Source: a virus
Taxonomy: Duplodnaviria; Heunggongvirae; Uroviricota; Caudoviricetes
Length of the DNA: 64,000 nucleotides
Strand: one strand, 5' to 3'
Virus record (IMG/VR): IMGVR_UViG_3300027887_000330
Each line of letters starts with the position of its first letter. Positions within the stretch are counted from its first letter, which is position 1. The translations under genes were made by a program, and so were the position numbers. The notes under the pieces were generated by a model. It made no database searches and was not told where the DNA came from. It saw nothing but the letters and a program-made list of their open reading frames with translations. Shown one piece after another: positions 15,347 through 38,138 of this stretch.

Positions 15347-15358
15347 TAGGAAAGGCTT

Positions 15359-20479: not shown

Positions 20480-22510
20480 ATGTTGGATTATAAAAAGATT
20501 AAGCTAGACGATTACAATTTGGAGATCGAGGTTGGGGTAGTTCCTAACAGCTCAACCTCTGATTTCCTTTCTAATCTGAGGGTAGGCAACACTATCGCTA
20601 AGAGCGACTATGAAGAGTTTTTGTTGTCTAGTTTAGTTCGAAATTTCCCTGGCTTGGTAAAACGCCTTGGCTCTATAGCCGATGACCAAGAAAAGAATGT
20701 GATACGACTGCGACTACTGGAAGCTATCTATCATTTAAATTCCAAGCTGCAACCCGGTCATGTAATCATACACGACCAGAGATTGTTACACAGAATGGAT
20801 TCAATACGCGGCGGTGGCCCCTCGGAACCCGTGCTTACAATGAATCCGGGTTGGTTAGATTCCAATAAAGGAGACTTACAAGTGTTTGCTGCCCCTGTAC
20901 AGGAGCTGATTAACAACATATGGGAAGAGCTTAAGTCTGATAGGTCTAAAGACTATACCTTAATGAAGGTGAACGTACTAGAAATGGAACTGCCTATTTT
21001 AGTTCTGTCTAGTACTAAAGTTGATCTGGACGACTTGATCGTGGATTTTTTATTCAAGAAGTGCGATGGTAACTTATTTTTGGCTAAGCACGATCTGAGA
21101 TTATGGATTGGCTATGTACTTGCTGTATCTATACCTCATATAGAGAAAATTATTTATGCCCTGGCCAAATCTAATTACATGAATGCTTACACTGAGAATG
21201 TAATTTATACTCAGATGTACATGTCTGTATTAAAGATTAATCCAGAGTTAAATTGGGAGATCATAGACTGGGACTCATTTCAGAACCAAGAGACCAGCCA
21301 GAAGGAACCAGAAGAGACACGTATACGGCGTATAACTTCCAAGACTCCTCTAACTAGAGAGAAGATTAGGACTTCGCGAGAGGAGGCGGAAGAAGAGAAG
21401 CCAAAGTTTAGGGACGTTCCGTATGAAAAAGTTTTAGGGTTACCCGCTGAGGTAAAGACCAGGATTATAGGGCAGGACCAGGCTGTTGACTCAGTATGTG
21501 AGTCCATAGCTGTAGCTAGAGTGGGCCTCCGGGGAGATAAAAAACCCGTAGGAACGTTCTTGTTTGCCGGAAAAACTGGTGTTGGTAAGACCGAGTTGGC
21601 TAAAGTATTGGCTGATGTCTTAACAGACCATGAGCCCATACGGATAGATTGTTCTGAGTATCAGCAAGCTCACGAGATCTCCAAGATCTTTGGGGCTCCC
21701 CCAGGCTACATAGGATTCGAAGACGATGGCAAGCACCCTAATCAGGGGACTCCACCGGCAACGGTAGCTTCTAAACTGAAGGAAAAACCATTTAGTGTCG
21801 TACTTTTTGACGAAATAGAAAAAGCTGACCCTGCTATTAACAATGTCCTTCTACAAATTATGGACGAGGGGCATGTAACCAGCGGGCGCGGGGAAGTAGT
21901 ATCATTCAACAACGCTGTTGTGATACTTACTTCTAACATCGGTACAGCTGAGGCTGAGGAGGCTTGTTTAAAGGAAGACTTGGGCTTCGTGATAAACGAA
22001 ATTGATAAGTGCTCCCTAGCCGAGGAAACAATTAAGTCATCCATACGAGAAAGGTTTAAACCAGAGTTTCGTAATAGGCTGACGGAGACGATCATATTTA
22101 ATTCTCTAGAGAAGGATACCTGTAAAGGAATAGTAGACGTATTGCTGAGAAAGACCAAGGAGAACCTGGAAAAGGCCCAGCATATATCTATGAAGTGGGA
22201 CGATGCAGTTAGAGATTTTGTACTGAGTGAAGGTTTTAGCGAGGACTTCGGAGCCCGTGAGATGGAACGAGTAATTCAAAAGCAAATAGAATTGCCTCTG
22301 GCTAGGCATATACTAGAAAATAAATACATGACTGCTAAGAAGGCAGAGATGCCAGCCGGGTCTACAATACATCTTAGTATAAAAGCCGGTGAGTTAACAT
22401 TTAAAATTAAGGATGATACTAATGAAAAAACTGATATTCGGAGAGCAAGACTTTCTAGTACAGATGTCACCCCTGGAAGGAAGTCCAGATCGGGTAATAA
22501 TCAGACATAA
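20480..22510 (+). CDS. ClpA/ClpB-like AAA+ ATPase (D2-type module with unknown 300-aa N-terminal domain)
   Basis: GQDQAVDSVCESIA...FLFAGKTGVGKTELAKVLA (Walker A). VVLFDEIEKA (Walker B). sensor/SRH VVILTSNIG. ClpB_D2-small-like C-terminus. Confidence 0.75.
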   Translation: MLDYKKIKLDDYNLEIEVGVVPNSSTSDFLSNLRVGNTIAKSDYEEFLLSSLVRNFPGLVKRLGSIADDQEKNVIRLRLLEAIYHLNSKLQPGHVIIHDQRLLHRMDSIRGGGPSEPVLTMNPGWLDSNKGDLQVFAAPVQELINNIWEELKSDRSKDYTLMKVNVLEMELPILVLSSTKVDLDDLIVDFLFKKCDGNLFLAKHDLRLWIGYVLAVSIPHIEKIIYALAKSNYMNAYTENVIYTQMYMSVLKINPELNWEIIDWDSFQNQETSQKEPEETRIRRITSKTPLTREKIRTSREEAEEEKPKFRDVPYEKVLGLPAEVKTRIIGQDQAVDSVCESIAVARVGLRGDKKPVGTFLFAGKTGVGKTELAKVLADVLTDHEPIRIDCSEYQQAHEISKIFGAPPGYIGFEDDGKHPNQGTPPATVASKLKEKPFSVVLFDEIEKADPAINNVLLQIMDEGHVTSGRGEVVSFNNAVVILTSNIGTAEAEEACLKEDLGFVINEIDKCSLAEETIKSSIRERFKPEFRNRLTETIIFNSLEKDTCKGIVDVLLRKTKENLEKAQHISMKWDDAVRDFVLSEGFSEDFGAREMERVIQKQIELPLARHILENKYMTAKKAEMPAGSTIHLSIKAGELTFKIKDDTNEKTDIRRARLSSTDVTPGRKSRSGNNQT

Positions 22511-22618
22511 TGCTACTAAGCTCTCCTCTATAGCAGACACACAGGTGGAAGCCTGGCGGGAGATGTTTGATATATTAACTAAGCATTATGGTATGAAGGT
22601 AATAAAAAGAGGCCTCTA

Positions 22619-23158
22619 ATGAAGTGGAGTGACCGCGAGCTGGGACATTTAAGAATGATTTTAGAGAGATATCAATCTCATTCTGTTCATGACATGTCCC
22701 AGCTTGCACATAAAACAATTAAGAGGAGATCCGCTAACGCTATAAGCCACAAGCTTCGAGAGTTAATTGCGGAGCAGGAATTCAAGGACGATCATATAGA
22801 AGTAAATGGAGTTGTATATCCTGCACAAGTAATTTCTGGATACGTAGTAATGACACTGCCGGACGGGATCATGTACCCGGCTCATATATTTGTATGGGAG
22901 AGTGAGTTTGGGCCGGTCCCCGTGGGCTATCACATCCATCATATAAACGGTAAGAGCTATGACAATAGGCTAAAAAACTTACAGCTGATGTCAGCCCCTG
23001 ACCATATTCGACTCCATACTTCAGGCCAACCCTCGGAAACTGCCATGTTATTTTGGTTCTTACAAGAACATAATATGTGGAGTAACTATCTGGATTACCG
23101 TAAGCAGATAATTGAATCAGACTGGTGTAATAAACCAAGGGAAGAAGGAACTGAATAA
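22619..23158 (+). CDS. HNH homing endonuclease
   Basis: GYHIHHINGKSYDNRLKNLQLMSAPDHIRLH HNH motif. Confidence 0.7.
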   Translation: MKWSDRELGHLRMILERYQSHSVHDMSQLAHKTIKRRSANAISHKLRELIAEQEFKDDHIEVNGVVYPAQVISGYVVMTLPDGIMYPAHIFVWESEFGPVPVGYHIHHINGKSYDNRLKNLQLMSAPDHIRLHTSGQPSETAMLFWFLQEHNMWSNYLDYRKQIIESDWCNKPREEGTE

Positions 23159-23568
23159 TGGAATGCTTAAACTGTCCGCACTGCGGACAACTATTAACGA
23201 CTGTTGAGACTCCGGTATTTTCGAAGTGGGGGGGAGTAGAACTGAACATATGTTTAAATGATTTTTGTGATTATTTTGCACGTTCATGGAAAATGCTATC
23301 TGAACAGTCTGGCTCGTGGTTAGGTTATCGTTATTTTCATGGAGAAAATGGCCAAGAAGGACCGATAGCAGTGGCCTCCGTGGACACTTTTAAAGACTCT
23401 ACTATTACTGAAGAAGAAAAGAAATCACGCCAGCAACGTGCCTATAATCGTGAGAAAGAATTTAGAAATTTATTAGAGGCTATCTCCTCCGCAGAGGAAA
23501 AAAAAGACTTACAATTGTCTGAGTGGCTTCAAGAGCTTAGGAAATTAAAATATCCTAATAAAACCTAA
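23158..23568 (+). CDS. Zinc-ribbon protein
   Basis: CLNCPHCG...CLNDFC pairs. Last gene of the plus block. Confidence 0.45.
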   Translation: MECLNCPHCGQLLTTVETPVFSKWGGVELNICLNDFCDYFARSWKMLSEQSGSWLGYRYFHGENGQEGPIAVASVDTFKDSTITEEEKKSRQQRAYNREKEFRNLLEAISSAEEKKDLQLSEWLQELRKLKYPNKT

Positions 23569-24490
23569 GGTTTTTCTTACGTTTTAAACCTAATTTAAAA
23601 GCTCTCATCTGTATACCAGACCAGTTACGGCCAGGGAGCTTTTTCATTAGGTCCTCCCTCAACATGATATCATAATTTTTTCTAAGGAGGTCGTCTTCGT
23701 GTGGCCTCCAAATACAATTATGAATAGGTTCAGGGTTGTCTATAATTTCCTTTGCTTTGGAGTGTTTTCTATCCATATATAAATTTGATCCTTCATAGAT
23801 ATATCTTAGGAAGTGCCACGCATCCCTACCAGAGTAAGTAACACACCATGAGGTCCCTGATTGAGTCACATTATAGTTATTTGCCCATACCTGTGAAAAA
23901 CATTGGTGTACGAAGGTAATCATTTGCTTATTTCCCGTTATATTTGCCTCCGGCCTATTGTGGTTTCTACCTCCCATTCTTACACACCCGTCACCGTCAA
24001 ACAGCCCCCTGATAAAGTGTCTAGTAAGTTCCGGAGGCAAGACCGGCGGGTTTACAACTTTGGATTTTTTTGGAATTATATTATAGGATGAAAGGCTTCG
24101 TAGCAATTCTGTATTATAGATACACAGCCCTTTTTGTGCCTTAGTATTTTTATACCCTCGTTTGTAACTAATAGGCGAGTCTGGGGAAGCTAGATTACGG
24201 ATTTTTATTAGTATGTCTTCGTCAGATTCCTGTAACCACAGGTTAATAGCTCGGTGATTTATACACCCATCAGCAGACCACATCCCTAATATATACGCTT
24301 TTTCTTCTGAATCAATCTTAGAGAAATCCAAGACTACTTTTCTAGGGACTCTTTTCTGCAAGCTATGTCGACTTATTTTATTTCGAATTGCTATAATGTC
24401 CCGTCTTGGTAGTAGTTTACATAAATCAGGGCCTTCCATATTTGGATAGTTATCTTCTAAAATTTTGAGCTCCTCTTTTGACCAACGCAT
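23555..24490 (-). CDS. LAGLIDADG homing endonuclease (double-motif)
   Basis: YILGMWSADGCI and FIRGLFDGDGCV, two LAGLIDADG blocks. Confidence 0.8.
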   Translation of the reverse strand: MRWSKEELKILEDNYPNMEGPDLCKLLPRRDIIAIRNKISRHSLQKRVPRKVVLDFSKIDSEEKAYILGMWSADGCINHRAINLWLQESDEDILIKIRNLASPDSPISYKRGYKNTKAQKGLCIYNTELLRSLSSYNIIPKKSKVVNPPVLPPELTRHFIRGLFDGDGCVRMGGRNHNRPEANITGNKQMITFVHQCFSQVWANNYNVTQSGTSWCVTYSGRDAWHFLRYIYEGSNLYMDRKHSKAKEIIDNPEPIHNCIWRPHEDDLLRKNYDIMLREDLMKKLPGRNWSGIQMRAFKLGLKRKKNLRFY

Positions 24491-24571
24491 TTAATACCCT
24501 CTTGCTATTTTTCTACCTACTTATACGAGTTAGTAAGTTAAAAGGATTGCAAATAAAAAACCTTAGGTATA

Positions 24572-24600
24572 GGGGAGCCCCGAAGGGCTCCCCTTTTTGT
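24572..24600. terminator. Strong GC hairpin plus T-tract (intrinsic terminator-like, plus-oriented)
   Basis: GGGGAGCCC-CGAA-GGGCTCCCC followed by TTTTTGTTT on the plus strand. Sits 1 nt from the stop of the minus-strand gene 24601..25278. Confidence 0.5.
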
Positions 24601-25278
24601 TTAATGGGCCGCAGCCCGTCTCATGTCTACCAGCTCGTCGAAAAGCCTGGTAGTGGTGGTGTCCACGAGGGTGTCAACCTTGTTCTTGTAGAACTCAAAC
24701 ACGTCTTCATGCATGAATCTGTTGGTGTCCCTGCGGGCAGTGGCCTCTGTCCGATACTTGGTGGCTATTGCCCTAGACTTGTCTTGACCAATAGGTTTAG
24801 CTTGCCGGTTATAGGCATTCAACTCAAGAAAAGAAGACTGTAGGTCAGCCATAGCCCTGGGTTTGTCCAGAATGAGGTCCTTGAGAGTCGAGTCCTCTTG
24901 GATGTAGTCTTTCCTCAATTCCACCAGATCATTCTGTTCCTTCTGCTGGGCTCTCCGCAAAGACTCTACCATTTCTTTGGCTTGATTAGCCTTAGCAAGA
25001 GCTTCCTCCCCCACCTGTCGGTGTCTGAGGGCATCTTCTACGCTAGTCGCCTCTGTAAAAGCAGCCGCGGCTCCCTGAGCTATTCTGAGGTTTTCATCCA
25101 GAGAGACCTGTTCTTTGACAATCTTCTCTTCCAGGCTGTGAATGATCTTGAATCTCTCATTGCTGGCGGCTGTAAGTTTATCGGTTAGAACGCGCCGATT
25201 CCAGATAGCTGCATCGTATCTCATATCGGTCATGAAAAATCTGAGTTTGAACTTAACCCAGTCCATTGCTTTAGACAT
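24601..25278 (-). CDS. Coiled-coil protein, weakly PspA/IM30-like
   Basis: 225 aa, all-helical, charged heptad-rich, PspA-like length. Weak similarity only. Confidence 0.3.
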   Translation of the reverse strand: MSKAMDWVKFKLRFFMTDMRYDAAIWNRRVLTDKLTAASNERFKIIHSLEEKIVKEQVSLDENLRIAQGAAAAFTEATSVEDALRHRQVGEEALAKANQAKEMVESLRRAQQKEQNDLVELRKDYIQEDSTLKDLILDKPRAMADLQSSFLELNAYNRQAKPIGQDKSRAIATKYRTEATARRDTNRFMHEDVFEFYKNKVDTLVDTTTTRLFDELVDMRRAAAH

Positions 25279-25295
25279 AGTGTCAACTCCTTTGG

Positions 25296-25712
25296 CTAGT
25301 TCACCAGTTCTTCTGCTATTCGCGGTGATACAAATATTCGGTGTTCTACACTGCCATTCCAGACGACATTGTAGTTCTCCTCCTTTAGACGCCGGACTAT
25401 AGTGTTACCTGCCCGAAGGCTCCCGGCTTCCGAATTGCCCAGGAACCCTATGTAAAGTCCCGACTTACCCTCGCTCATCCCCTCTTCATCTTGGATATGC
25501 CAAAATAACCCGTAGATCTTATTGGACTCGTTCATTGCTGAGCCTACCTCATAAGAGGCGCAGGTTGTACAGCAACAGTCTCCGGTTAGCATGACAAAGT
25601 CTTTCTCCAGTGGGGCTAAGGAAGCTTTAAGATTCTCCAAAAAGTATAAAACCTCTTCTCGAAAGTTCCATCTCTCCAGACTATAAGTATTTTCTTCTGC
25701 TAATTGAGCCAT
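25296..25712 (-). CDS. Acidic protein related to the central domain of the MFYR paralog family (lacks the conserved N-terminus)
   Basis: GLYIGFLGNSEAGS parallels YLTIGFPTVS and FYLCIGFPHIG in array members. Directly abuts the array. Confidence 0.5.
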   Translation of the reverse strand: MAQLAEENTYSLERWNFREEVLYFLENLKASLAPLEKDFVMLTGDCCCTTCASYEVGSAMNESNKIYGLFWHIQDEEGMSEGKSGLYIGFLGNSEAGSLRAGNTIVRRLKEENYNVVWNGSVEHRIFVSPRIAEELVN

Positions 25713-25719
25713 GTATTTC

Positions 25720-26070
25720 CTATCCGTATGAGTACGAAAACACCCAGCCGGGACTTGTTGAGGGCGTTATGTTGTATTTCCTTAGTGTTGCAAGAAGAGA
25801 AGTATTCCACTCTATTTTCTTGAGTTGATTATCTTCAACGAACTGCACGAAGTCTTCGTCTGAGTAACGGGCTATTAAGATTACCAGAGCCGGTTCATTC
25901 TCATCGTGTATAAAATGAGGGCTCTCTTCGTTTCCCCAGGAATAGGTATCGTAAAGTGCATCTCTTTGATCCTCTGAGAGACAGTGTAGATCCTCTTTTG
26001 TTAGTCGATACCCCCATCCAATGTATGAACTAGAACTCGAATTGGTTACAAATTTAGATCGGTAAATCAT
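25720..26070 (-). CDS. MFYR-family paralog 1 (start at MIYRSKFVTNSSSSS)
   Basis: Conserved N-terminus and C-terminal SPGWVF motif. The track ORF extends 8 codons upstream. Confidence 0.6.
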   Translation of the reverse strand: MIYRSKFVTNSSSSSYIGWGYRLTKEDLHCLSEDQRDALYDTYSWGNEESPHFIHDENEPALVILIARYSDEDFVQFVEDNQLKKIEWNTSLLATLRKYNITPSTSPGWVFSYSYG

Positions 26071-26414
26071 GATGCGTGGTGTGTGAAGAACCATCCAGGA
26101 CTCAGACCTTCAGTGTCTAAGCCTAGGTTTTTACATTGCTCCTGTATTGCTTCTGCCCATTCAGGTTTTACTGAGTCCCCGAATGTGTTGATGCAGATGG
26201 TTCCGTAGTAGTCGTCCAAGTCTTGGTAGGACTCTGAGATGTAAACTAGGTAGTTGTCATCGTCTGAGCAGCCTTCTACTATCTTGTCTCCGTCGTAGAG
26301 TTTGTCAAAGAAGTCATCTGGCTTCTCTCTTAGTCTATTCTCAGGGATAACTATACCCCAAGCTACGAATGAAGTGGTGCTCGAATTGGTTATAAATTTG
26401 CTGCGGTAGAACAT
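26067..26414 (-). CDS. MFYR-family paralog 2 (start MFYRSKFITNSSTTSF)
   Basis: Start ATG overlaps the stop of the upstream paralog (TGATG). C-terminal SPGWFF. Confidence 0.6.
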   Translation of the reverse strand: MFYRSKFITNSSTTSFVAWGIVIPENRLREKPDDFFDKLYDGDKIVEGCSDDDNYLVYISESYQDLDDYYGTICINTFGDSVKPEWAEAIQEQCKNLGLDTEGLSPGWFFTHHAS

Positions 26415-26728
26415 CAGCCGTCGTACCATCCGTCTTCGATGTAACCTATGGTATCATCCACATTGTTCCTCTTGGCCCATGCTTCCAGGGCTTTGTACTT
26501 TTCCTGCAGTTCATTGGCGGGGCCAAAGACTATCATTCCTTCTTTGTCTATGCTCACCGTCGGAAAGCCAATAGTGAGATACACCACGTCTCCGGGTGTC
26601 CAGTATTCCTGTATTCCTTCTGGTAGCCCCTCTTCAATTTTATCAAATGTTCCTCGGTGAACCTCTATTCCAAACGCTACCAAAGATGTGCTGCTTGAAT
26701 TCGTTACGAATAATTTCCTGTAAAACAT
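26414..26728 (-). CDS. MFYR-family paralog 3 (MFYRKLFVTNSSSTSL)
   Basis: Conserved N-terminus. C-terminal EDGWYDG. Confidence 0.6.
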   Translation of the reverse strand: MFYRKLFVTNSSSTSLVAFGIEVHRGTFDKIEEGLPEGIQEYWTPGDVVYLTIGFPTVSIDKEGMIVFGPANELQEKYKALEAWAKRNNVDDTIGYIEDGWYDG

Positions 26729-27180
26729 TAGCTATACCAGTTGTCCTCCACTATCTGTATTTGTTCGTCAAGGCCCACTCCCACAATTATGTCCATGAGC
26801 TCTTGGTAACCATCCACCAACGCTTGGTCATCATGTATGAAAGTAACGCCCGTTTCTGTTATGCCTATGTGAGGAAAACCTATACACAGGTAAAACCGAT
26901 CCCCGTCGGGGGGAAGTTCCATGTAGACTGTCCCTGTAGGAAGCACAGCCTCCAGGAATTCATAGTCCATATCGTTTTCTTCCAGATACTTTCCAGGGTC
27001 TCCCAGAAAAGCATCGGAATCCACGTTGGGCCAACTATTAATTATTTCCAAAGCCTTAGCAGTATTCTTTTCTACATAATAGGTGCAGATGTCTACCATC
27101 GTTCCCCGGTCCAGTTCTATTCCAAAGGCTATGAACGAGCTCGAACTTGAGTTTGTTACAAATTTTTGTCGGTAAAACAA
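26728..27180 (-). CDS. MFYR-family paralog 4 (MFYRQKFVTNSSSSSF)
   Basis: Conserved N-terminus. C-terminal EDNWYS. Strongly acidic. Confidence 0.6.
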   Translation of the reverse strand: MFYRQKFVTNSSSSSFIAFGIELDRGTMVDICTYYVEKNTAKALEIINSWPNVDSDAFLGDPGKYLEENDMDYEFLEAVLPTGTVYMELPPDGDRFYLCIGFPHIGITETGVTFIHDDQALVDGYQELMDIIVGVGLDEQIQIVEDNWYS

Positions 27181-27435
27181 TTACCACTCCTTGTTTTCTA
27201 CCATCCTAACAATTTCCTCTACAGGAAGCTGCTTGTGGTCTTTGTAATCCTGTATTGCTCCCTCAATTTCATTTGTTATCCTGACGAGATCTGGTGTCAA
27301 GTGCTGTCCGTCATCATCCTCGTAGTTAGCGGCACAACGTATAAGGCGGCGGGCTTCTTTCAAGGATTTCAGGGCATCCAGTATCACGTAGGAACTTGAA
27401 CTTGAGTTCGTTATATGTTTTGGTCGATAAAGCAT
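27181..27435 (-). CDS. MFYR-family paralog 5 (start MLYRPKHITNSSSSSY)
   Basis: Internal Met gives the conserved N-terminus. The track ORF has a 17-codon upstream extension. Confidence 0.5.
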   Translation of the reverse strand: MLYRPKHITNSSSSSYVILDALKSLKEARRLIRCAANYEDDDGQHLTPDLVRITNEIEGAIQDYKDHKQLPVEEIVRMVENKEW

Positions 27436-27436
27436 C

Positions 27437-27784
27437 TTAATGTCCTGAGTTATAGAATCCCCAAGCAGGGCTGTCGTCCATGTCAAAGCCGTACTTGGTA
27501 ACTGCTTTCTTTAACTCTGTTAAAGCCGCCACTTCGTCAATTTCTTTGTGCCCAATAGGTTGCCAAATCCCATACTCGAACGCAGGTAACTCTGACGCCT
27601 TGATATAAAACAAAGCGGAGCCCTCATCCATGTATGTCCTGGCTATACCCACAGGGCCATCTTCATATATATCTGCTTCTGCTAGTTCATCATACCTTTT
27701 AGGATCATTCGCTCGGGCGTAAACTCCGTAGGCTATGAAACAAGTCGATGAGCTGTTCGTCACAAACTTTGCTCGGTAATACAT
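27437..27784 (-). CDS. MFYR-family paralog 6 (MYYRAKFVTNSSSTCF)
   Basis: Conserved N-terminus. C-terminal SPAWGF. Confidence 0.6.
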   Translation of the reverse strand: MYYRAKFVTNSSSTCFIAYGVYARANDPKRYDELAEADIYEDGPVGIARTYMDEGSALFYIKASELPAFEYGIWQPIGHKEIDEVAALTELKKAVTKYGFDMDDSPAWGFYNSGH

Positions 27785-28215
27785 TAAGTCCTCACATCAA
27801 TCGCTACTCTCCAAGCGGGTTCAGCTGTGCTGTCCCCATAAGCAGTAGCGGTAATTCCGTACTCCAGACAGAAGAGTTTTATTTTGTGCATCCACTCTTC
27901 TTCTTTTGCCTTGCTTTCTTGTAGGTGATCTATAGGGAGATCATCTACGCTGCCCTCTAGGGACCAATATGAATTATTGATATAGGCCATGCCGCTTTGG
28001 CAGTCAGGATCTATGTATAATCCTATGTCTCCCTTTAAGGTCTCTGCCCAGTCCCATAGTATTTGAGACTGATCTTCCCACGTAGCTTTGGTGAGCTCTT
28101 CCGGCGGGATTATTTTTTCTAGTATATTATTAGCTGAGTCTTCATCAAAATTAATTCCAAAGAAAATGAAACTCGTTGAAGAAGAGTTCGTTACGAACTT
28201 TTGTCTGTAAAACAA
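27784..28215 (-). CDS. MFYR-family paralog 7 (MFYRQKFVTNSSSTSF)
   Basis: Conserved N-terminus. C-terminal EPAWRVAI. Confidence 0.6.
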   Translation of the reverse strand: MFYRQKFVTNSSSTSFIFFGINFDEDSANNILEKIIPPEELTKATWEDQSQILWDWAETLKGDIGLYIDPDCQSGMAYINNSYWSLEGSVDDLPIDHLQESKAKEEEWMHKIKLFCLEYGITATAYGDSTAEPAWRVAIDVRT

Positions 28216-28605
28216 TTAGCGCTCCACGTGTATGGCTATCTGCCACGATGGCGTATGATAGGGGAGACCTTGGTTGTCACAAAGCTCCTTGATTGCCTGA
28301 TTCCATTCTTTATTCTTATCACGAGAAAATAATTTAAGTAAAATCTGGACCGGAAGAGCTTCGACTCCGCTTTCATCGAGGCCAATGTAGCTTTCTTTGG
28401 CATAAACCATAGCTCTTTCGACTTCCCAGCAATGATGTAGTCCCGCTGTAGACTCTTTATCACAGTCAAGCCTATAGGCTAGGTCTTGTAAAGACTCTCC
28501 TCCAGAGAATGATTCTCGCTCTACATCTTTTGTTCTGAATTCTATCCCATAAAAGATGAAACTCGTTGATGAACTGTTAGTTACAAATTTAGTCCTTAGG
28601 AACAT
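28216..28605 (-). CDS. MFYR-family paralog 8 (MFLRTKFVTNSSSTSF)
   Basis: Conserved N-terminus. C-terminal TPSWQIAI. Confidence 0.6.
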   Translation of the reverse strand: MFLRTKFVTNSSSTSFIFYGIEFRTKDVERESFSGGESLQDLAYRLDCDKESTAGLHHCWEVERAMVYAKESYIGLDESGVEALPVQILLKLFSRDKNKEWNQAIKELCDNQGLPYHTPSWQIAIHVER

Positions 28606-28855
28606 CCAGTTTGCCTTCTTCCATGCATGTTTTCAATTCTTGTTCGTCCGTAATGGCCCGCCCCCCGGCGGTAGTAAACACATACCCACATTCACATGCG
28701 ATGTGACTTATGTATGCGTCATTCAGAAAAGTCTCCAGATCTCCATATTCTATTTCTCCGTCTTCGTCGAAGCTGATGGTCTCAGCCTCCTCCACACCTT
28801 TATAGAGCTTATAAAACTCGTCGCTACCACACCTGGGGCACTCATAAATGCTCAT
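28589..28855 (-). CDS. Small zinc-ribbon protein
   Basis: CPRCGS...CECGY pairs. 88 aa. Confidence 0.4.
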   Translation of the reverse strand: MSIYECPRCGSDEFYKLYKGVEEAETISFDEDGEIEYGDLETFLNDAYISHIACECGYVFTTAGGRAITDEQELKTCMEEGKLDVPKD

Positions 28856-29123
28856 TCAGCAACCCCATGCTTTCCATGTCATCTAGCTCGGCGGCTATAC
28901 CGTCGAGGTCATCCCCGAAATACTCTCGGGCTATCTGCATCATCTCTGCCCTTATGGGCCGTTCCTCGGGTGCTTTTTCTCCCATGCCACAACAGGGACA
29001 ACCCTCCCCGTTTAGGAAGGCTGTCCCGTATGATCCCAACTCGTGTAGGCTACTGAGATCCCAGGATTCCCCACACTTTTGACAATAGATGTCCATCATT
29101 CTCCTTGTCCAATTGCCGCTCAC
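28842..29123 (-). CDS. Small Cys-rich zinc-binding protein
   Basis: CQKCGE...CPCCGMGE. 93 aa. Confidence 0.4.
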   Translation of the reverse strand: MSGNWTRRMMDIYCQKCGESWDLSSLHELGSYGTAFLNGEGCPCCGMGEKAPEERPIRAEMMQIAREYFGDDLDGIAAELDDMESMGLLNEHL

Positions 29124-29314
29124 GCCGCCCTCCCAATAACCTTATGGTTTATAGGAAATCTGCGGCAATTTTTTCCAGAGACAACATCATATTCCCACTG
29201 ATAGCCGCATACCGGGCAGTCATACAGATAGGCAGTAGGCCCATAACCCGCTGTCCTCCAAAATTTGAGTTCGCCCGCTGACCCACAATAAAAGCACTCG
29301 TTTTTTTTATCCAT
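29120..29314 (-). CDS. Small zinc-ribbon protein
   Basis: CFYCGS...CPVCGY. 64 aa. Confidence 0.4.
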   Translation of the reverse strand: MDKKNECFYCGSAGELKFWRTAGYGPTAYLYDCPVCGYQWEYDVVSGKNCRRFPINHKVIGRAA

Positions 29315-29322
29315 TCTACCCC

Positions 29323-31302
29323 CTATAACGTAGCGTTGATGGCGTCCATGAGATCACCCTCGGACCAGATCAACACCTTATTGTCCTTGGCAAAAGTCAG
29401 TTTCTTGGGACCGGCTTCCTTGCCAGCTAAAAGTATGTTAACTTTAGCACTCAAGGAACCCACGCATTTTCCTCCGTACTGAGCTATAAGAGCTTTGAGA
29501 TCCTCGCGCGGGGTGCTGTGATTTCCTGTGACTACAAACACCTTTCCTTTCAGCTTGTCGCTGGTTACGGTAACCGAAGCGACTTCGTCAAACGTCATCA
29601 GGTGTAGCAGCCCGTTTACCAAGTTCCTGTTTACTTGCTGGCTGAAGAATTGTTTTGTGTTCTCTGCAATAGCCGTTCCAATACCGTCCAAAGATAAGAT
29701 GTCTTTAGTATCGGCGTCCATGACAGCTTCCATAGTCTTGAACTTCTCTGCGAATTGTTTTGAGACACTGCGCCCTACCAGAGGAATACCTAACGAATAG
29801 ATGAACCTATCCAGAGTAGTGGCCCTGGCTTTCTGTATGGCCGCTATGATCTTTGCTGCCAGCTTGTCCCCCATCCTCTCCAACCCTGCAAAATGCAAAG
29901 GCATAAGAGTAAACAGATCGTAGGGGCTTTGAATTATTTTCTTATTAACCAGCTGTTCGACGACCTTCTCGCCCAGCCCCTCTATGTTTAGGGCGTCCCG
30001 GCAGACGAAGTGTTTGATGCTCTCAGCCAGTTGTGCTATACATGTTTTATTGGTACAGCGTAAGGCGGCCTCTCCTGTAATCCTGACGGCTTTGCTTCCA
30101 CAGGCAGGGCAAGTATCAGGTATTATGAAAGGACCGTCAGTTTTCTTCTCAGAGACTTTAACGACCTCTGGGATAACATCCCCCGCCCGTTGGATTATAA
30201 CCTTGTCACCGACGTTGATGTTCTTGGCGTTCAACATGTCTTGGTTATGCAGCGTGGCCCTGGATATGGTGGCTTGTCCCACTTTCACCGGCACTAACTC
30301 GGCCACAGGAGTCAGAGTCCCTGTTCTGCCTACCTGCACTGTGATGCTCTTGACTGTTGTCTCTGCCTGTTCAGCCTTGAATTTGAGAGCGATGGCCCAC
30401 CGAGGTGCTCGGGAGGTGAAGCCCAGCTTCTCCTGTTCATCTGTTCGGTTTACTTTTATGACAGCTCCGTCTATATCATACGGGAACTTGGACCTGTCTT
30501 CCTCTATTTTCTTTACTTGGTCTACCAAACCATCCACAGACTTAACATGAAAGGTGACCGAAGACGGAATGTGCAGACTGTCAAGAAAGAGTTGCTTCGC
30601 CGTTTGACTATCTAAATCTCTCCCCTCTGCTAGTAACTCGTACCCGAAGAAGCGAAGTCTTCTCTTGGCCGCCTTTTGAGGGTCGAGATTTCTTACCCCT
30701 CCCGCTGCGGCATTACGAGGGTTGACATAGGTATCTTCTCCCTCAGCCTCTCGCTCTGCATTGATGGCTAAAAGGTCTTTTTTGTAAATAACAACTTCTC
30801 CGCGTACACGGAAGAACAGATTAGAGTCAAACTTACCTCCCACATCAAGAGGGATACCCCTGATTGTCCGTATGTTGTGGGTGACGTCTTCCCCAGTTTC
30901 CTTGTCGCCCCGCGTAGCAGCCAGCACAAACTTGTTAGCGTCATAAACCAGCTCTATCGCTAGTCCGTCGAGCTTAGGCTGCACCACAAAATCAGAAGAT
31001 CCAGTCTTCTTCGCCCACTTCCGCAGTTCGTCTAGGCTGAATACATTATCCAAGGACAGCATGGGGACGGCGTGCTTAACCTTCGTGAAGCTGCTTAGGG
31101 GGGCGGAACCCACGCGCTGGGTGGGGCTAGTGGAGACGATCAGATCAGGATAAGCCTTCTCCAGGTCCTGCAACTCCTTCATCTTCTCGTCGTATTCTTG
31201 GTCTGATATGGTAGGAGAGTCCAACGCGTGGTACTGATAATTGGCGTTGTCAATCTCCCCGCTGAGTTCCTTAATCCTCTTTTCAGCTTGCTCTTTTGTC
31301 AT
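29323..31302 (-). CDS. ligA: NAD-dependent DNA ligase LigA
   Basis: Adenylation motif KLDGLAIELVY (KxDG). OB domain. Cys4 zinc finger CPACGS...C..C. HhH region. C-terminal BRCT (VFVVTGNHSTPREDLKALIAQYGGK). 659 aa. Confidence 0.9.
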   Translation of the reverse strand: MTKEQAEKRIKELSGEIDNANYQYHALDSPTISDQEYDEKMKELQDLEKAYPDLIVSTSPTQRVGSAPLSSFTKVKHAVPMLSLDNVFSLDELRKWAKKTGSSDFVVQPKLDGLAIELVYDANKFVLAATRGDKETGEDVTHNIRTIRGIPLDVGGKFDSNLFFRVRGEVVIYKKDLLAINAEREAEGEDTYVNPRNAAAGGVRNLDPQKAAKRRLRFFGYELLAEGRDLDSQTAKQLFLDSLHIPSSVTFHVKSVDGLVDQVKKIEEDRSKFPYDIDGAVIKVNRTDEQEKLGFTSRAPRWAIALKFKAEQAETTVKSITVQVGRTGTLTPVAELVPVKVGQATISRATLHNQDMLNAKNINVGDKVIIQRAGDVIPEVVKVSEKKTDGPFIIPDTCPACGSKAVRITGEAALRCTNKTCIAQLAESIKHFVCRDALNIEGLGEKVVEQLVNKKIIQSPYDLFTLMPLHFAGLERMGDKLAAKIIAAIQKARATTLDRFIYSLGIPLVGRSVSKQFAEKFKTMEAVMDADTKDILSLDGIGTAIAENTKQFFSQQVNRNLVNGLLHLMTFDEVASVTVTSDKLKGKVFVVTGNHSTPREDLKALIAQYGGKCVGSLSAKVNILLAGKEAGPKKLTFAKDNKVLIWSEGDLMDAINATL

Positions 31303-31519
31303 GTTATCCTCTTGGGGTTGCTGCGGTAGAAGGAAAGACTGTGGTTGCGACTTCGATCTTTCCTTCTATAGGTGTCTTAAAGGGAGAGATGTCGTTCACA
31401 GCTATCCACAATTCTTCCAGCACTCCATTTTGTTTAAAATATTCTTCTGCCTTTTTCATGGCACCTGTTTCGATATCCAATCCCGTGATTCGAACACTCA
31501 CTTTCATTTGCTATTCTCC

Positions 31520-31810
31520 TTATCCATCCATGTAGTCGTCTACTGATCCCTTTATGTCCCAGCAGTAATTGCAGTCCCGGCAGGAGGCAGAGACGGGGGC
31601 GTCCTCAAATTCTTCACTGTCATCTCCGTATTCAAAATCAAAATAGTAAAGGGGCTCATTAGCCACTTGCTGCCAGTATCTATACTGCAGAAAATCTTTT
31701 CCAAAGGTAATCTCTTGGCTTCCACACTCGGGGCAGACTAATTTCATTTCATTGGCCCCGGTGGGATGATTCTTTCCCCTAGAGTGAATTGTTCTGGGAT
31801 CAGGGAACAT
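31520..31810 (-). CDS. Small zinc-ribbon protein
   Basis: CPECGS...CRDCNYC. 96 aa. Confidence 0.4.
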   Translation of the reverse strand: MFPDPRTIHSRGKNHPTGANEMKLVCPECGSQEITFGKDFLQYRYWQQVANEPLYYFDFEYGDDSEEFEDAPVSASCRDCNYCWDIKGSVDDYMDG

Positions 31811-32396
31811 CTATATCTCTCGTGCCAGGGATACACAGGCCACACAACGGGATGGTTCTCGTACCTCTTGTCTATCTCAATAATCATCCACAGGCCGCTT
31901 TTCATTTGGGCCCAGTAGAGTCCTTCTTCTGTGTTTTCAATGTCTATGGCCATAATACTACGGCCCTAATGATTTTAGAGCCCTCCTTGTATTTGTCCTC
32001 GTCATCCGGATGTATCGGATATTCATCTTCAGTGTTAAAGAGGCAAGGGGATATATCCCACAGACGTTTAAACCCGTTGCCTTCTTCATCCCGTGAGACA
32101 TACACGGGTAAATTATCATCCAGGTTTTCAATTTGTTCCTTCAAATCCTTTATCAATAAAGGTTCTGGCATTATCCACTGCTCCTTAAGTTAGGATTAAA
32201 ATAACAATAAGATCCGGGTTGTCTTTCTAGGAACAAGCGGTCCGCCTCTTCTACGGTTTCTACGGAACAGGTGCACCCGAATAACACTATCTCCTTATCT
32301 ACGTGGCATCTAGCCAACTCTATGCCTTCGGGAGTCGGGTAGTGTTCTGTTCCTCTGGCTCTGTACACTTTCACTAATTCAGTCATTGGTTGTTTC

Positions 32397-32873
32397 CTAT
32401 CTGAGAAGCCAGTCAAATACCTCTGGGTCCTCATGGTATATCTGCATGAATGGTTTGTCCCTCATATCCTTAATTTTCTCTATGAGGTATCTACCTTTCT
32501 TCTGTTCTATCACTTTTTGTAGGGCTGTGTCAAGGATTAATTTCCATCTTTCTCGGTAGGCAAGTATCTTTAGGTAAGCGTTTGAAGAAATCTGCTCTCG
32601 TAACCACCGCAGGTAACCGTTGGAGGCCAGGGCCAAGAAGATCTGTTCGGCATCAATATCTTCGTCTTTGGCGATCATTATGGTGTGGAACTTGTCATCA
32701 TTCTCCACGGCATTAGTGACGAACTTAAACCGTAGGCCGAAGGCATCAACATCAACCACGCCGAAAATAGGTTCAGCAATATACATGCCTAGCTGAAAGG
32801 CTACGAGTTCCTGTCTGACATGTTTGATAAGCTCTTCGAGCCTGTCGCGTGTTATCTTACTGGGATCTGACAT
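32397..32873 (-). CDS. Hypothetical protein
   Basis: 158-aa ORF in a gene-dense operon. No motif. Confidence 0.45.
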   Translation of the reverse strand: MSDPSKITRDRLEELIKHVRQELVAFQLGMYIAEPIFGVVDVDAFGLRFKFVTNAVENDDKFHTIMIAKDEDIDAEQIFLALASNGYLRWLREQISSNAYLKILAYRERWKLILDTALQKVIEQKKGRYLIEKIKDMRDKPFMQIYHEDPEVFDWLLR

Positions 32874-33136
32874 TTCTCGTCGTCCTCGCCTAGCATGTTA
32901 TGTTCTTTTAGCCACGCTATGGCTTCAGTCTCGGTTGCACCTAAACTAAAATCACAACTGCTACAAACCCAGTCCCATGTATCAATTGTTTCGGAGTCAA
33001 CTACATCCCCGAAAGCAAAGTACTCCACACCGTCCACGCAATCTACCTCTCCGGTCCACATAGATTCACGCACGTCTTGCATTATATGCATCGAGGTGTT
33101 GCCACATTCAGGACAAACAAAATTAATTTTTCTCAT
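32852..33136 (-). CDS. Small zinc-ribbon protein
   Basis: CPECGN...CSSCDF. 94 aa. Confidence 0.4.
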   Translation of the reverse strand: MRKINFVCPECGNTSMHIMQDVRESMWTGEVDCVDGVEYFAFGDVVDSETIDTWDWVCSSCDFSLGATETEAIAWLKEHNMLGEDDEKCQIPVR

Positions 33137-33338
33137 GTCTTAGTTGGTAGGCTTTCTTGACAGTCTCCGGGGACTTCGTCCCTATCTTTCTTTCCTGTCT
33201 AAGCCTAGTCATTTTCCTTTCTATGGACGCTTTAGAGTGTTTAGGGAACATAAGATCAAGCTCTTGTATGGGCTTATCATAATTCTCTATCAATTTTTGT
33301 GTTTCACTCAGTGTCCACGCCTTTCGCCTTGGTGTCAT
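33123..33338 (-). CDS. Hypothetical basic protein (start MTPRRKAW)
   Basis: ATG at 33338 preceded by GGAGG, which is also the 3-prime arm of the upstream terminator hairpin. Confidence 0.45.
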   Translation of the reverse strand: MTPRRKAWTLSETQKLIENYDKPIQELDLMFPKHSKASIERKMTRLRQERKIGTKSPETVKKAYQLRHEKN

Positions 33339-33341
33339 AAT

Positions 33342-33381
33342 AAAAAAACCTCCTAGCATTTTTGGTATCAATGCCAGGAGG
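33342..33381 (-). terminator. Intrinsic terminator (minus strand) after gene 33403..33678
   Basis: CCTCCTAGCA...TGCCAGGAGG 9/10-bp stem followed on the minus strand by UUUUUUUA. Confidence 0.6.
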
Positions 33382-33388
33382 TTAGTTA

Positions 33389-33400
33389 TTAGGATGGGAT
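33389..33400 (-). promoter_or_regulatory. Recurrent promoter-like motif copy 1 (TTAGGATGGGAT)
   Basis: 51-62 nt upstream of the ATG at 33338, immediately after the upstream stop and terminator. Confidence 0.35.
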
Positions 33401-33402
33401 CG

Positions 33403-33678
33403 TTAGTTGTCTACCTGAAGAACTTTTCCTTTTTTCAGGGCTTCCCGGTAGCTTAGAAAGTAATATTCAAACTCACCCTCCAAGAATTCATTTCCAAGAG
33501 CAGCATAGAAATTCGCGGCCGCTTTGTCGCCCCTTGAGAAAGCCTGGGTCACTTTTGTTTCAAAGAACTTGTCAATAGCAACAAACAACTCGTTGTCCTG
33601 TCTTTTTGCTACCTCTTCTTGGATGGAGGCTTTCATACGGGAGTTGTATTCTTGTTCTGTCTCTAACCTTGTAGTCAT
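33403..33678 (-). CDS. Hypothetical protein
   Basis: 91-aa ORF followed by a terminator. Confidence 0.45.
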   Translation of the reverse strand: MTTRLETEQEYNSRMKASIQEEVAKRQDNELFVAIDKFFETKVTQAFSRGDKAAANFYAALGNEFLEGEFEYYFLSYREALKKGKVLQVDN

Positions 33679-33705
33679 TATTGCCTCATCAGCAGTTAGA
33701 TGTGA

Positions 33706-34026
33706 TCACTCTTGCTCCACAACGATAGTGATCCTGGAACCCCGGGGAATTTTGATGGTTTTAGTAGCTCTGGTCTTCTTTCGCTCGGTCTTTATGGCGT
33801 CGGTGTAGCGGTTGGAGAGTTCTACTAAGCTGCCTACTATACTATTGATAGCTACATAGCCACTTTCACCCAACTTTTCTTTGAGGAGTTTCTCCCGGCG
33901 TTGCCGCGTGACTACTTTTCCTTGTGGAGTTCTTAGTCCGAGACCTCTGGCGATGTCTTTCATCACCTCGTTCTTGACGGATGCCGGGTCTACGACACCT
34001 TCAGGAAACTTTGTTGAGAGTTTCAT
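33706..34026 (-). CDS. Hypothetical basic protein (possibly nucleic-acid binding)
   Basis: Lys/Arg-rich 106 aa. No firm motif. Confidence 0.35.
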   Translation of the reverse strand: MKLSTKFPEGVVDPASVKNEVMKDIARGLGLRTPQGKVVTRQRREKLLKEKLGESGYVAINSIVGSLVELSNRYTDAIKTERKKTRATKTIKIPRGSRITIVVEQE

Positions 34027-34051
34027 TTTTTTCCTTTCTACTATTCATCAG

Positions 34052-34390
34052 TCAACCGCGCTCAAACTTACGTGTCTTTTCTTCCTTGGGCTTAAGTTCC
34101 TTACGCAGGTATTTGAGGGCCTTTTCAGGCATCATGGAGGGCATACAAGTGTAGACATCGAGTGATATGTAGTCATGTTCTGGACTATAATGAGCGCTCA
34201 TGTGCGATTCTGCGAGCATCACGATAGCTGTTGCACCCTGTGGCTCGAATTGGTGTCCCATATAATCGAGCACCTTACAGCCTGCAATCTTAGCCGTGTC
34301 TAACAACAGAGCTACCAAATCATACTCGTTGCTTATCCTCTCCGGATCGCAACCATACCAGTCTAGTAGTAGGTGTGTCCCCTTTTCCAT
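34052..34390 (-). CDS. speD: Pyruvoyl-dependent S-adenosylmethionine decarboxylase proenzyme (SpeD/SpeH type; the pyruvoyl arginine decarboxylase relative is not excluded)
   Basis: HLLLDWYGCD...LAESHMSAHYSPEHDYISLDVYTC matches the class 1 AdoMetDC core, including the ES self-cleavage site. Confidence 0.75.
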   Translation of the reverse strand: MEKGTHLLLDWYGCDPERISNEYDLVALLLDTAKIAGCKVLDYMGHQFEPQGATAIVMLAESHMSAHYSPEHDYISLDVYTCMPSMMPEKALKYLRKELKPKEEKTRKFERG

Positions 34391-34443
34391 CTCATGTTGC
34401 CCTCCTTTACATAGATGTTTAAAATTACAACTGGTTAGTTATT

Positions 34444-34481
34444 GTGGTCAGAAATCTTCCAATGATCCTGACCACTTTTTT
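34444..34481. terminator. Plus-oriented hairpin plus T6 within a 220-nt noncoding gap
   Basis: GTGGTCAG-16 nt loop-CTGACCAC then TTTTTTGTTG. Confidence 0.4.
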
Positions 34482-34611
34482 GTTGTCTCTTCGTCCTCAA
34501 CCAAGCGGGGATCCATCTCTTCCATTATCGCGGCCACGTATTGAGCATAAGGATCTGGATTGATCTTCATAGAATCATAGAGGTCGTGCCACATGTCGTG
34601 GTAGTCAAGGT

Positions 34612-35945: not shown

Positions 35946-36229
35946 CAGTCCTCCTCGGCGTCTGCCTGGCTAAGCGAACGCGCTTCTGCGGTTATTTCAT
36001 CAATATCTATTTCTTCATCTTGCCACTCTGCGTCTACAACTCCGCTCTCGTCTAACAAATTAACGACCACCACCGCGGGTAAATAGTCTAGGCAGATGTG
36101 AACTGACAGCGAGATGTTTGGCATTTCCACGTGAGAGAAAGACATATTTATACAGTCATCGTCTGTCAGCGTCACACCATTGGAGCCGTAATCCAAATCC
36201 CAGCCCGCAATACGTAATTCAGATAACAC
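35945..36229 (-). CDS. Small strongly acidic protein
   Basis: 94 aa, D/E-rich. Confidence 0.4.
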   Translation of the reverse strand: MLSELRIAGWDLDYGSNGVTLTDDDCINMSFSHVEMPNISLSVHICLDYLPAVVVVNLLDESGVVDAEWQDEEIDIDEITAEARSLSQADAEED

Positions 36230-36715: not shown

Positions 36716-36730
36716 TAATCAACCTCTCCC

Positions 36731-37258: not shown

Positions 37259-37268
37259 CACTTTATCC

Positions 37269-38126: not shown

Positions 38127-38138
38127 TGCTTTGTCTCC

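Follow-up and report, generated by a model that had tools for sequence, protein, structure and literature searches.

N-Terminally Tagged Small Acidic Proteins and a Candidate Partner Radical SAM/SPASM Enzyme in a Caudoviricetes Virus

In anaerobic sulfatase maturation, SPASM enzymes of the anSME/AtsB type modify a Ser or Cys in an unstructured, near-N-terminal motif of a full-length protein, with neither leader cleavage nor export. The internal proteins of phage T4 are divergent small phage proteins that share an N-terminal capsid targeting sequence. In Klebsiella, Avs2 (the KpAvs2 operon; Bechon et al. 2024, PMC11564622) needs the accessories Avap1 and Avap2. Avap1 is a radical S-adenosylmethionine (SAM) protein whose substrate is unknown, which gave no viperin-type (pVip) products, and whose AlphaFold2 (AF2) model has no nucleoside triphosphate (NTP) pocket; Avap2 is DUF6375-like and binds Avs2 (PMC11564622). 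Radical SAM/SPASM (FxsB-type) modification has also been predicted for FxSxx-COOH peptides in VMAP ternary, STAND-containing conflict systems (Kaur et al. 2020, PMC7159879). Here, we report the analysis of 64,000 nucleotides of viral DNA (Caudoviricetes; IMG/VR record IMGVR_UViG_3300027887_000330; this whole stretch is called the window below), which encodes ten small proteins with a shared 16-residue N-terminal tail (window version, M-F-Y-R-x-K-F-V-T-N-S-S-S-T-S-F), eight of them in one array, together with a radical SAM/SPASM enzyme (39272 to 40312, minus strand). The tail is probably the recognition and modification site of this dedicated enzyme, a candidate pair that we propose because the enzyme belongs to a maturase class, the tail is extremely conserved and predicted to be disordered, one enzyme accompanies many paralogs, and the two gene families are linked whichever of them is used as the starting point.

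By analogy, protein maturation of the anaerobic sulfatase maturase type is the closest mechanistic precedent: both systems combine the radical SAM/SPASM class with a Ser-containing, unstructured N-terminal target, here a candidate one predicted from sequence. Unlike the anSME motif (C/S-x-P/A-x-R), the motif described here (R-x-x-F-V-[ST]-N-S-S-S) stands at residue 1; the candidate substrates are acidic array proteins of 100 to 150 amino acids with no sulfatase domain, and no anSME model scored above its NCBIfam cutoff. As with the SPASM maturases of ribosomally synthesized and posttranslationally modified peptides (RiPPs; AlbA/SboA, SkfB/SkfA, PqqE/PqqA, MftC/MftA, StrB/StrA, and WgkB), which are the best matches of the enzyme, a maturase stands beside candidate precursors, and as in prochlorosin-type systems with one enzyme and many precursors, a conserved segment is joined to a hypervariable remainder, with up to about 20 genes per enzyme. 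In contrast to RiPPs with their short core peptides, what varies here is a folded domain (about 90 to 130 amino acids; confident AF2 prediction), the conserved segment, Ser rich and without a conserved Cys, occupies the very N terminus, and the tag also occurs on large leucine-rich repeat (LRR) and TIR proteins; no leader protease or transporter family of the classical RiPP kind recurs at the loci. FxSxx-COOH modules likewise pair a radical SAM/SPASM enzyme with a short conserved motif on a variable precursor in STAND/AP-ATPase conflict systems (PMC7159879), but their motif is C-terminal and peptidase released, whereas here it is N-terminal, with no peptidase, and the protein families differ. 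Phage arrays are not described in that paper (PMC7159879).

The array, its tail, and the wider family

Members were identified with a family hidden Markov model (HMM) over all six frames of the window. Eight adjoining minus-strand genes at 25720 to 28605 (open reading frame [ORF] list and alignment) encode acidic products of 84 to 150 amino acids, with gene starts set at the motif Met or TTG because homologs begin there; a preliminary description of the interval 25296 to 28605, made from the letters of the DNA, had given lengths of 101 to 150 amino acids, which these starts correct. Its account of eight consecutive minus-strand genes with near-identical N termini held exactly as quoted, and the tight packing that it reported is borne out by the gene junctions (0, −1, +1, 0, −1, −1, and −4 nucleotides). 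The N termini of the eight follow M-[FILY]-[YL]-R-x-[KL]-[FH]-[VI]-T-N-S-S-[ST]-[ST]-[SC], in which M1, R4, T9, N10, S11, and S12 do not vary; an alignment of 31 sequences shows an invariant Trp close to the C terminus. The same description had counted 11 members, including one related gene at the end of the interval. Ten motif-bearing members are present in the window, as the HMM search returned the eight array genes and two divergent members outside the interval (37269 to 37592 and 36731 to 37258); the supposed eleventh is the ninth gene of the interval (25296 to 25712, minus strand), which has no motif and matches Pfam DUF6891 (PF21831; 47.4 bits against a gathering cutoff of 27; E value, 2.7e-12). 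It was rejected as a family member on this match and on an hhalign probability of 0.4% against the family. A DUF6891 gene also lies 3′ of the array in related contigs L176 and L177 and is probably the cut-off last gene of L180.

Conservation had been described as confined to the termini, but the eight proteins align over their whole length as one fold, with an “LVYI” strand, a helix before the C terminus, and the Trp near the end. Two paralogs were modeled with AF2, one of 129 amino acids (31-sequence alignment; predicted local distance difference test [pLDDT], 78.8) and one of 104 amino acids (146-sequence alignment; pLDDT, 87.1, with residues 1 to 10 below 50 and the rest at 90 or above). 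In both models the first 10 or 11 residues are below 50, and an alpha/beta domain begins at about residue 12 or 13: a long beta strand comes first, then helices and a hairpin, and last a strand at the C terminus. Both terminal strands are of the beta type and belong to a single predicted domain. Given the low pLDDT of residues 1 to 10 or 11, it is the best-conserved segment that the models predict as a flexible tail, apart from the fold.

The family extends far beyond the window. Scanned in full with HMMER, 1.84 billion cluster representatives yielded 2,159 proteins at an E value of ≤1e-3 and 77 at ≤1e-10; a few of these may be Ser-rich false positives, such as a protein of 2,246 amino acids. 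A profile search found 810 clusters, all labeled hypothetical and without Pfam domains, and each of two subfamily profiles matched about 800 clusters (90% identity). These proteins have about 105 to 125 amino acids and the pattern “MKIRxGFVSNSSSSSF...YIG.S...IKDDETGxQFK...KC.T.EEAWYDG.” Among 397 unique members from the fetched loci, the tail logo (percent) was M91 K87 I57 R99 x G87 F97 V91 S84/T15 N S100 S99 S83 S75 S94 F93, registered on an [ST]N[ST][ST] anchor, which fixes N10 by construction. The motif sits at residue 1 in every one of the 397. Mean column identity overall is about 21%, against 99% for R4, 97% for F7, 100% for S11, 99% for S12, and 93% for F16 of the tail; G20 is conserved in only 42% of the family. 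Median length is 124 amino acids and median net charge is −9, with 93% of members negative, in line with the strong acidity first noted for the array.

No Pfam or NCBIfam model matched the window paralogs or the distant members. PHROGs gave no significant match for the window paralogs, and distant members matched phrog_7397 (function not assigned) weakly at their N termini; PADLOC has no model for the tagged protein. A sequence-profile search of the PDB returned chance matches alone, no solved fold matched, and neither blastn nor tblastn of the region or its members matched GenBank phages, a search in which the BLAST low-complexity filter masks the Ser run. The motif string appeared in no paper in a literature search, and literature on radical SAM/SPASM enzymes with jumbo phages, anti-defense, STAND proteins, or RiPPs yielded analogous systems only. 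The array is a phage expansion of a large unannotated family whose members combine a flexible tail with a small, variable, acidic alpha/beta domain, and its first description as an intact, unrecognized gene family stands, given the lack of Pfam, NCBIfam, and fold matches, the weak PHROG matches, and the selection reported below. Three other readings, namely, pyruvoyl-type self-cleavage at Ser-Ser, a Ser run that acts as a phosphate-binding loop, and an N-degron, were weighed and dropped, as none of the evidence spoke to them. Among the matches, P0033 (115 amino acids) carries the tail twice, probably because the start of the next gene has been fused to a truncated member, and P0136 (2,246 amino acids) has five matches to the N-terminal motif and could be a genuine repeat protein or a spurious, Ser-rich match.

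The tandem layout and similar N termini of the eight genes might suggest that the array is duplication debris, left by recent tandem duplication or gene conversion and free of selection at the protein level. This explanation is refuted by codon usage and substitution rates, and we give it next to no credence. Over the first 60 nucleotides the paralogs are on average 60% identical (range, 43 to 73%), and over the first 20 codons 61% of the codon pairs for identical residues differ in codon, with Ser encoded by both TCN and AGY. Such synonymous scrambling makes the 45-nucleotide DNA block reported at the gene starts a by-product of protein conservation. Each paralog also has its own ortholog group in other metagenomic phages, among them a 104-amino-acid type ending “...GYIEDGWYDG,” a 117-amino-acid type ending “...PCWVFSHKYS,” and a 129- to 140-amino-acid type ending “...PSWQIAIHVER.” Nei-Gojobori ratios of nonsynonymous to synonymous substitution (dN/dS) against related contig L180 were 0.085 for the tail and 0.12 for the remainder, with dS near saturation; a ratio of about 1 had been named beforehand as the mark of unselected duplicates. 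On these sequence comparisons, the paralogs are old, under purifying selection, and not recent duplicates.

Individually, member 1 (28216 to 28605; like all ten, on the minus strand) has 129 amino acids, begins MFLRTKFVTNSSSTSF, and ends TPSWQIAIHVER (family HMM E value, 1.8e-35); it is the paralog modeled at pLDDT 78.8, with residues 1 to 11 below 50. Member 2 (27784 to 28215; 143 amino acids) has a TTG start, reads (M)FYRQKFVTNSSSTSF...EPAWRVAIDVRT, and is identical to P0001 of the public collection, and member 5 (26728 to 27180; 150 amino acids), also with a TTG start, reads (M)FYRQKFVTNSSSSSF...EDNWYS and has orthologs P0015, P0021, and P0026. Members 3 (27437 to 27784; MYYRAKFVTNSSSTCF...SPAWGFYNSGH; E value, 2.6e-27; orthologs P0025 and P0027) and 7 (26067 to 26414; MFYRSKFITNSSTTSF...SPGWFFTHHAS; ORF list and family HMM) each have 115 amino acids, and member 8 (25720 to 26070; 116 amino acids; MIYRSKFVTNSSSSSY...SPGWVFSYSYG) is identical to P0003, with orthologs P0005 and P0009 to P0011. 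Member 6 (26414 to 26728; 104 amino acids; MFYRKLFVTNSSSTSL...GYIEDGWYDG) is nearest to the wide-family consensus and gave the model with pLDDT 87.1. Member 4 (27181 to 27435) is short, with 84 amino acids (MLYRPKHITNSSSSSYV..., ending NKEW; E value, 5e-6); its tail is kept and the remainder is divergent. Outside the interval first reported, member 9 (37269 to 37592; 107 amino acids; MHYRPKFVTNSSSSCM..., with a CxxC insert, ending SSGWYSFQC; E value, 6.9e-8) lies 1.7 kb downstream of the radical SAM gene and has orthologs in five related loci, and member 10 (36731 to 37258; 175 amino acids; MFYRPKFVTNSSSSGYYFF...; E value, 1.5e-7) has orthologs in six.

The radical SAM/SPASM enzyme and its linkage to the tail

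The enzyme (39272 to 40312, minus strand; 346 amino acids; Pfam Radical_SAM E value, 1.5e-15) has the Cys triad C51-x3-C55-x2-C58 and the further cysteines C244, C266, C284, and C330. Among 97 orthologs the triad cysteines are 98 to 100% conserved and these four are invariant; C318, C321, C327, and C339 occur in 44 to 67% of orthologs, including the window enzyme, where CPGCDVNDLCHSC forms a SPASM-type CxxCx5CxxC motif. Subthreshold NCBIfam matches were mostly to peptide or cofactor SPASM maturases (MftC, NirJ2, WgkB, ScmE, PqqE, AlbA, and PapB), and sequence matches in the PDB were SkfB, PqqE, and CteB, with BtrN for the C-terminal part. The window enzyme gave no Pfam SPASM match at an E value of 1e-3; the Proteus ortholog passes this model (22.5 against a cutoff of 21.5), and the Vibrio ortholog passes TIGR04085 (34.4 against 27). 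The window enzyme and its orthologs thus show the Cys triad, auxiliary-cluster cysteines, and coupled candidate substrate genes of the radical SAM/SPASM class. Most characterized enzymes of this SPASM/twitch class act on peptides or proteins. No curated NCBIfam equivalog model reached its cutoff, so the enzyme family is an uncharacterized one. Orthologs share a conserved N-terminal extension of about 45 amino acids, and the radical SAM genes beside arrays encode 334 to 353 amino acids and are orthologous, with 26 to 69% identity over full length.

Tag and enzyme vary together: a D6/T9 tag (“RTDFVTNSS”) was found with Cx8Cx6C enzymes only (14 of 14), and a K6/T9 tag with the window clade only. 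Within one orthologous group (L009 to L165; e.g., L015, L016, and L147), triad spacing is Cx3Cx2C, Cx6-23Cx2C, or, in Clostridia, Cx8Cx6C, and such variable spacing is unusual for radical SAM enzymes. In the window, a DUF6745 protein of 377 amino acids (38139 to 39272, minus strand) follows the enzyme; its start overlaps the radical SAM stop at the shared coordinate 39272, so the two genes are probably translationally coupled. By clustering of same-strand ORFs, the DUF6745 gene is not conserved beside the enzyme in other loci.

Long contigs that carry homologs had a radical SAM gene inside or beside the array each time. Starting from the enzyme, 29 of 37 IMG/VR loci have at least one member within 10 kb, at a median gap of 277 bp and within 500 bp in 18; starting from the family, 50 of 78 IMG/VR loci have a radical SAM ortholog within 10 kb. 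By a rough estimate, random placement of the enzyme on contigs of about 125 kb would put it within 10 kb of a member in about 16% of cases, against the 64% observed. In cellular genomes and metagenome-assembled genomes (MAGs), 33 of 48 loci carry the enzyme, often abutting, though many of these “cellular” matches are MAG contigs and perhaps misbinned phage. Nearly all members (501 of 503) are on the enzyme strand. When all same-strand ORFs were clustered, the enzyme was found in 45 loci, the tagged family in 27 (by blastp; more by HMM), and the next family in 9; the radical SAM enzyme and the tagged family are the only two gene families widely shared across loci. Members stand upstream of the enzyme at some loci and downstream at others, which argues against frozen synteny, and number from 1 to about 20 per enzyme. 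The arrays lie on large phage contigs (100 to 460 kb). In one of these (L001; 381 kb), IS605 OrfB/TnpB (Cas12f-like) genes at 8740 to 9699 and 14858 to 15961 lie on the opposite strand inside an array of about 19 members.

In bacteria, the pair forms part of a conserved four-gene operon consisting of a SMEK-nuclease/NACHT protein of 883 to 947 amino acids (Pfam SMEK_N and NACHT; PADLOC Avs2 E value, 2e-23), a protein of 125 to 136 amino acids, a tagged protein of 133 to 140 amino acids, and the enzyme. The operon occurs in Proteus mirabilis, Vibrio atypicus, “Candidatus Oscillochloris fontis,” Sulfuricurvum, and Verrucomicrobia and Acidobacteriota MAGs, as well as on Agrobacterium, Rhizobium, and Rhodobacter plasmids; the Agrobacterium genes are named “SMEK domain-containing protein,” “hypothetical protein,” and “radical SAM protein” in RefSeq. 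In Proteus it is flanked by a methyltransferase, a HATPase_c protein, and transposases, and complete Escherichia coli genomes gave no match to the Proteus operon DNA. The small gene between the STAND and tagged proteins (L171, 9640 to 10017; L174, 8510 to 8920; L181, about 5250 to 5602) has no Pfam match and is missing from the Agrobacterium plasmid gene table. Clostridia have the tail (MKIRTDFVTNSSSSSF) at the head of proteins of 77 to 1,834 amino acids that directly follow the enzyme, including BspA-type LRR proteins and a TIR-domain protein. Two Clostridia MAG loci illustrate these fusions: in one (L165, 1186 to 3414), the 743-amino-acid protein that bears the tail has a TIR_2 domain and a hydrophobic segment at its C terminus; in the other (L142, 7629 to 15502), the tail is on two tandem BspA-LRR proteins (777 and 1,834 amino acids). 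At both loci these genes come directly after the radical SAM gene.

Compared by description, the bacterial operon resembles KpAvs2-Avap1-Avap2 in joining an N-terminal nuclease and Avs2-like STAND NTPase to a radical SAM accessory and one or more small accessory proteins. It differs in its four genes and in the size of the STAND protein (883 to 947 against at least 1,352 amino acids). The protein of 125 to 136 amino acids might be a counterpart of Avap2; unlike for the DUF6375-like Avap2, no DUF6375 match is on record for either small operon protein. Without a STAND gene in the window, the phage locus does not itself qualify as a KpAvs2-type operon.

Proposed mechanism and competing explanations

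If the tail is a modification site, all ten paralogs would share a single enzyme, much as many RiPP precursors share a maturase. The enzyme would bind the extended tail, and a 5′-deoxyadenosyl radical would abstract a hydrogen from one of the residues of the tail. The chemistry could be anSME-type Ser oxidation at S11 or S12, a cyclophane-type cross-link from F7 to S9 or N10, or epimerization. The modified tail would confer a common activity, and the diversified acidic domains would provide differing target specificities.

The proposal draws on genomic association and on the class of the enzyme, and several points weigh against it. No Cys, Lys-Trp, or C/SxPxR motif is conserved in the tail, which fits no known SPASM chemistry. 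Pfam and NCBIfam scans of the enzyme found no RiPP recognition element (RRE) or PqqD-like domain, although sequence-based RRE detection is insensitive. The window array itself is 10.7 kb from the enzyme, with only members 9 and 10 close (1.7 kb). No member was detectable at 8 of the 37 enzyme-seeded loci, two of which (L042 and L044) end just past the enzyme, and no enzyme lay within 10 kb at 28 of the 78 family-seeded loci, several of which are truncated contigs or second arrays, the latter on contigs whose enzyme is elsewhere. In addition, 142 records of cultured Enterobacteriaceae phages carry a 25%-identical radical SAM relative (tblastn with the enzyme), the best matches being genomes of about 175 to 179 kb such as that of the Straboviridae phage Margaery. 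In the one genome examined, that of Citrobacter phage Margaery, neither the 5 kb around the radical SAM gene nor the first 50 kb of the sequence has a tagged gene, and these phages are therefore not counted as carriers of the module. The Margaery relative (L178; 91124 to 92275) has a Cx8Cx2C triad and is annotated “radical SAM protein.” Finally, coinheritance and covariation of tag and enzyme are also expected if the proteins bind the enzyme without being modified.

That last point leads to the main rival, a nonsubstrate adaptor model that fits the same genomic data: the tail would dock the paralogs on the enzyme (in bacteria, alternatively on the STAND NTPase complex), and the variable domains would recruit the real substrates. 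Besides sharing the linkage data, the model would suit the many paralogs of variable surface per enzyme, and the KpAvs2 accessory Avap2 does physically bind Avs2 (PMC11564622). Yet conservation that is Ser rich, predicted to be disordered, and placed exactly at the N terminus is more typical of a modified or recognized peptide than of a stable interface, and characterized SPASM enzymes act on the peptide that they bind, even if the present data do not separate binding from modification. We regard partnership of this kind as the less probable arrangement, though a credible one. A good deal further down we place stand-alone acidic proteins, DNA mimics or anti-defense factors, with a structural N terminus and only incidental proximity to the radical SAM gene. 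Their small size, net charge, multicopy arrays in nonstructural phage regions, and fast evolution outside the tail would suit such proteins, which like Ocr and ArdA are small, strongly acidic, and phage encoded; but in phages, bacteria, and plasmids alike, same-strand adjacency to the enzyme holds in both directions of search, the predicted fold leaves the tail out, and neither sequence nor fold searches matched Ocr, ArdA, or other mimics, which have no counterpart of the radical SAM-linked conserved tail. For the DNA-mimic or anti-defense idea in general, raised in the preliminary description, the acidity of the proteins fits, yet homology and fold matches to known mimics are lacking, and it is neither supported nor excluded.

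The preliminary description had also taken the N terminus for a shared tag, which stands insofar as the tail is predicted outside the fold (pLDDT below 50, against above 90 for the domain), and had proposed partners for it that do not: no head, capsid, protease, ClpB-like ATPase, or GDP-heptose gene recurs at the related loci, where the radical SAM/SPASM enzyme does. One such proposal was a capsid-targeting sequence or propeptide, cleaved after “GIE” by a prohead protease, or else a degron or handle for the ClpB-like ATPase at 20480 to 22510. A conserved N-terminal peptide on divergent small phage proteins does resemble T4 IPI to IPIII, and a ClpB-like AAA protein is encoded in the window. Unlike in the T4 internal proteins, the tag is found in bacterial chromosomal and plasmid STAND-nuclease operons beside the radical SAM gene and on LRR and TIR proteins, which contradicts a phage-only role, and the low conservation of G20 speaks against cleavage after “GIE.” Such targeting is highly improbable, and we hold no greater expectation of N- or O-glycosylation at N10-S11-S12 by way of the sugar-nucleotide genes that the description reported elsewhere in the window. 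Formally, N-S-S fits the N-x-S/T sequon, and it hardly varies; still, no glycosyltransferase or sugar-pathway gene is common to the related loci, the conserved partner being the radical SAM enzyme, and the tail is kept in bacterial operons that have no such sugar genes. The idea of a shared tag was thus right in spirit, and its partner is, on balance and judging from gene linkage, likely to be the radical SAM/SPASM enzyme.

Genomic surroundings and significance

The genes around the array include an NAD-dependent DNA ligase (29323 to 31302, minus strand; E. coli LigA 2owo; E value, 1.9e-155), a DHH/DHHA1 (RecJ-like) phosphoesterase (47231 to 48322, minus strand), an SPFH/Band 7 protein (44446 to 45714, minus strand), and a ResIII/DEAD helicase (52682 to 54121, minus strand), neighbors that mark a replication and host-takeover region and not a structural one. 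A PARP-like protein (42740 to 44143, minus strand) has WGR, PARP regulatory, and PARP catalytic domains (Pfam E values, 2e-22, 5e-12, and 2.5e-11, respectively), an architecture that is eukaryote-like and unusual for a phage. Directly upstream of the array, three small overlapping minus-strand genes (28589 to 29314; 88, 93, and 64 amino acids) have paired CxxC motifs and are zinc-ribbon-like; none has a Pfam match. On its other side, a strand-switch region (20480 to 24490), where cumulative GC skew turns at about 23.5 kb, contains genes for the ClpB-like AAA protein (AAA_2 and ClpB_D2-small; 20480 to 22510), an HNH endonuclease (22619 to 23158, plus strand), and a LAGLIDADG-type endonuclease (23555 to 24490, minus strand). 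A promoter and terminator scan of 24500 to 41000 found promoters no more often than in shuffled sequence; a strong GC-rich hairpin with a T-run lies at 24571 to 24594.

From context alone, the system most likely acts in phage-host conflict, as the pair occurs in Avs2-like nuclease-NTPase operons and the tail on LRR and TIR proteins. Anti-defense or host-takeover roles are plausible for the phage copies, which form acidic, fast-diversifying arrays in a nonstructural region near LigA, the helicase, the PARP-like protein, and homing endonucleases. A bolder and doubtful scenario is that phages captured the pair of tag and maturase from bacterial Avs2-like (NLR-related) immune operons and multiplied the tagged partner to as many as about 20 diversified acidic proteins per array, which, once modified by the enzyme, would serve as decoys for or inhibitors of STAND immune sensors or other host defenses.

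The analysis defines a large family that had no Pfam or NCBIfam annotation and one weak PHROG match, and it offers enzymologists a concrete substrate hypothesis, namely, a 16-residue tail with natural panels of substrates. Folded candidate substrates with the motif at residue 1 are out of the ordinary for SPASM enzymes, and new radical chemistry on a Ser/Asn/Phe-rich sequence may come to light through them. Under the scenario of capture by phages, this would be the first phage-encoded radical SAM protein-maturation system with multiple folded substrates, and the Avap1-like radical SAM accessory of Avs2 operons would have a role in modifying the N-terminal tail of its partner; should the bacterial operon and KpAvs2 be related, the present result would suggest a protein tail as the target of Avap1-type enzymes. 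The pair may be a shared currency of phage-host conflict and could explain why some Avs2 systems need a radical SAM accessory (PMC11564622).

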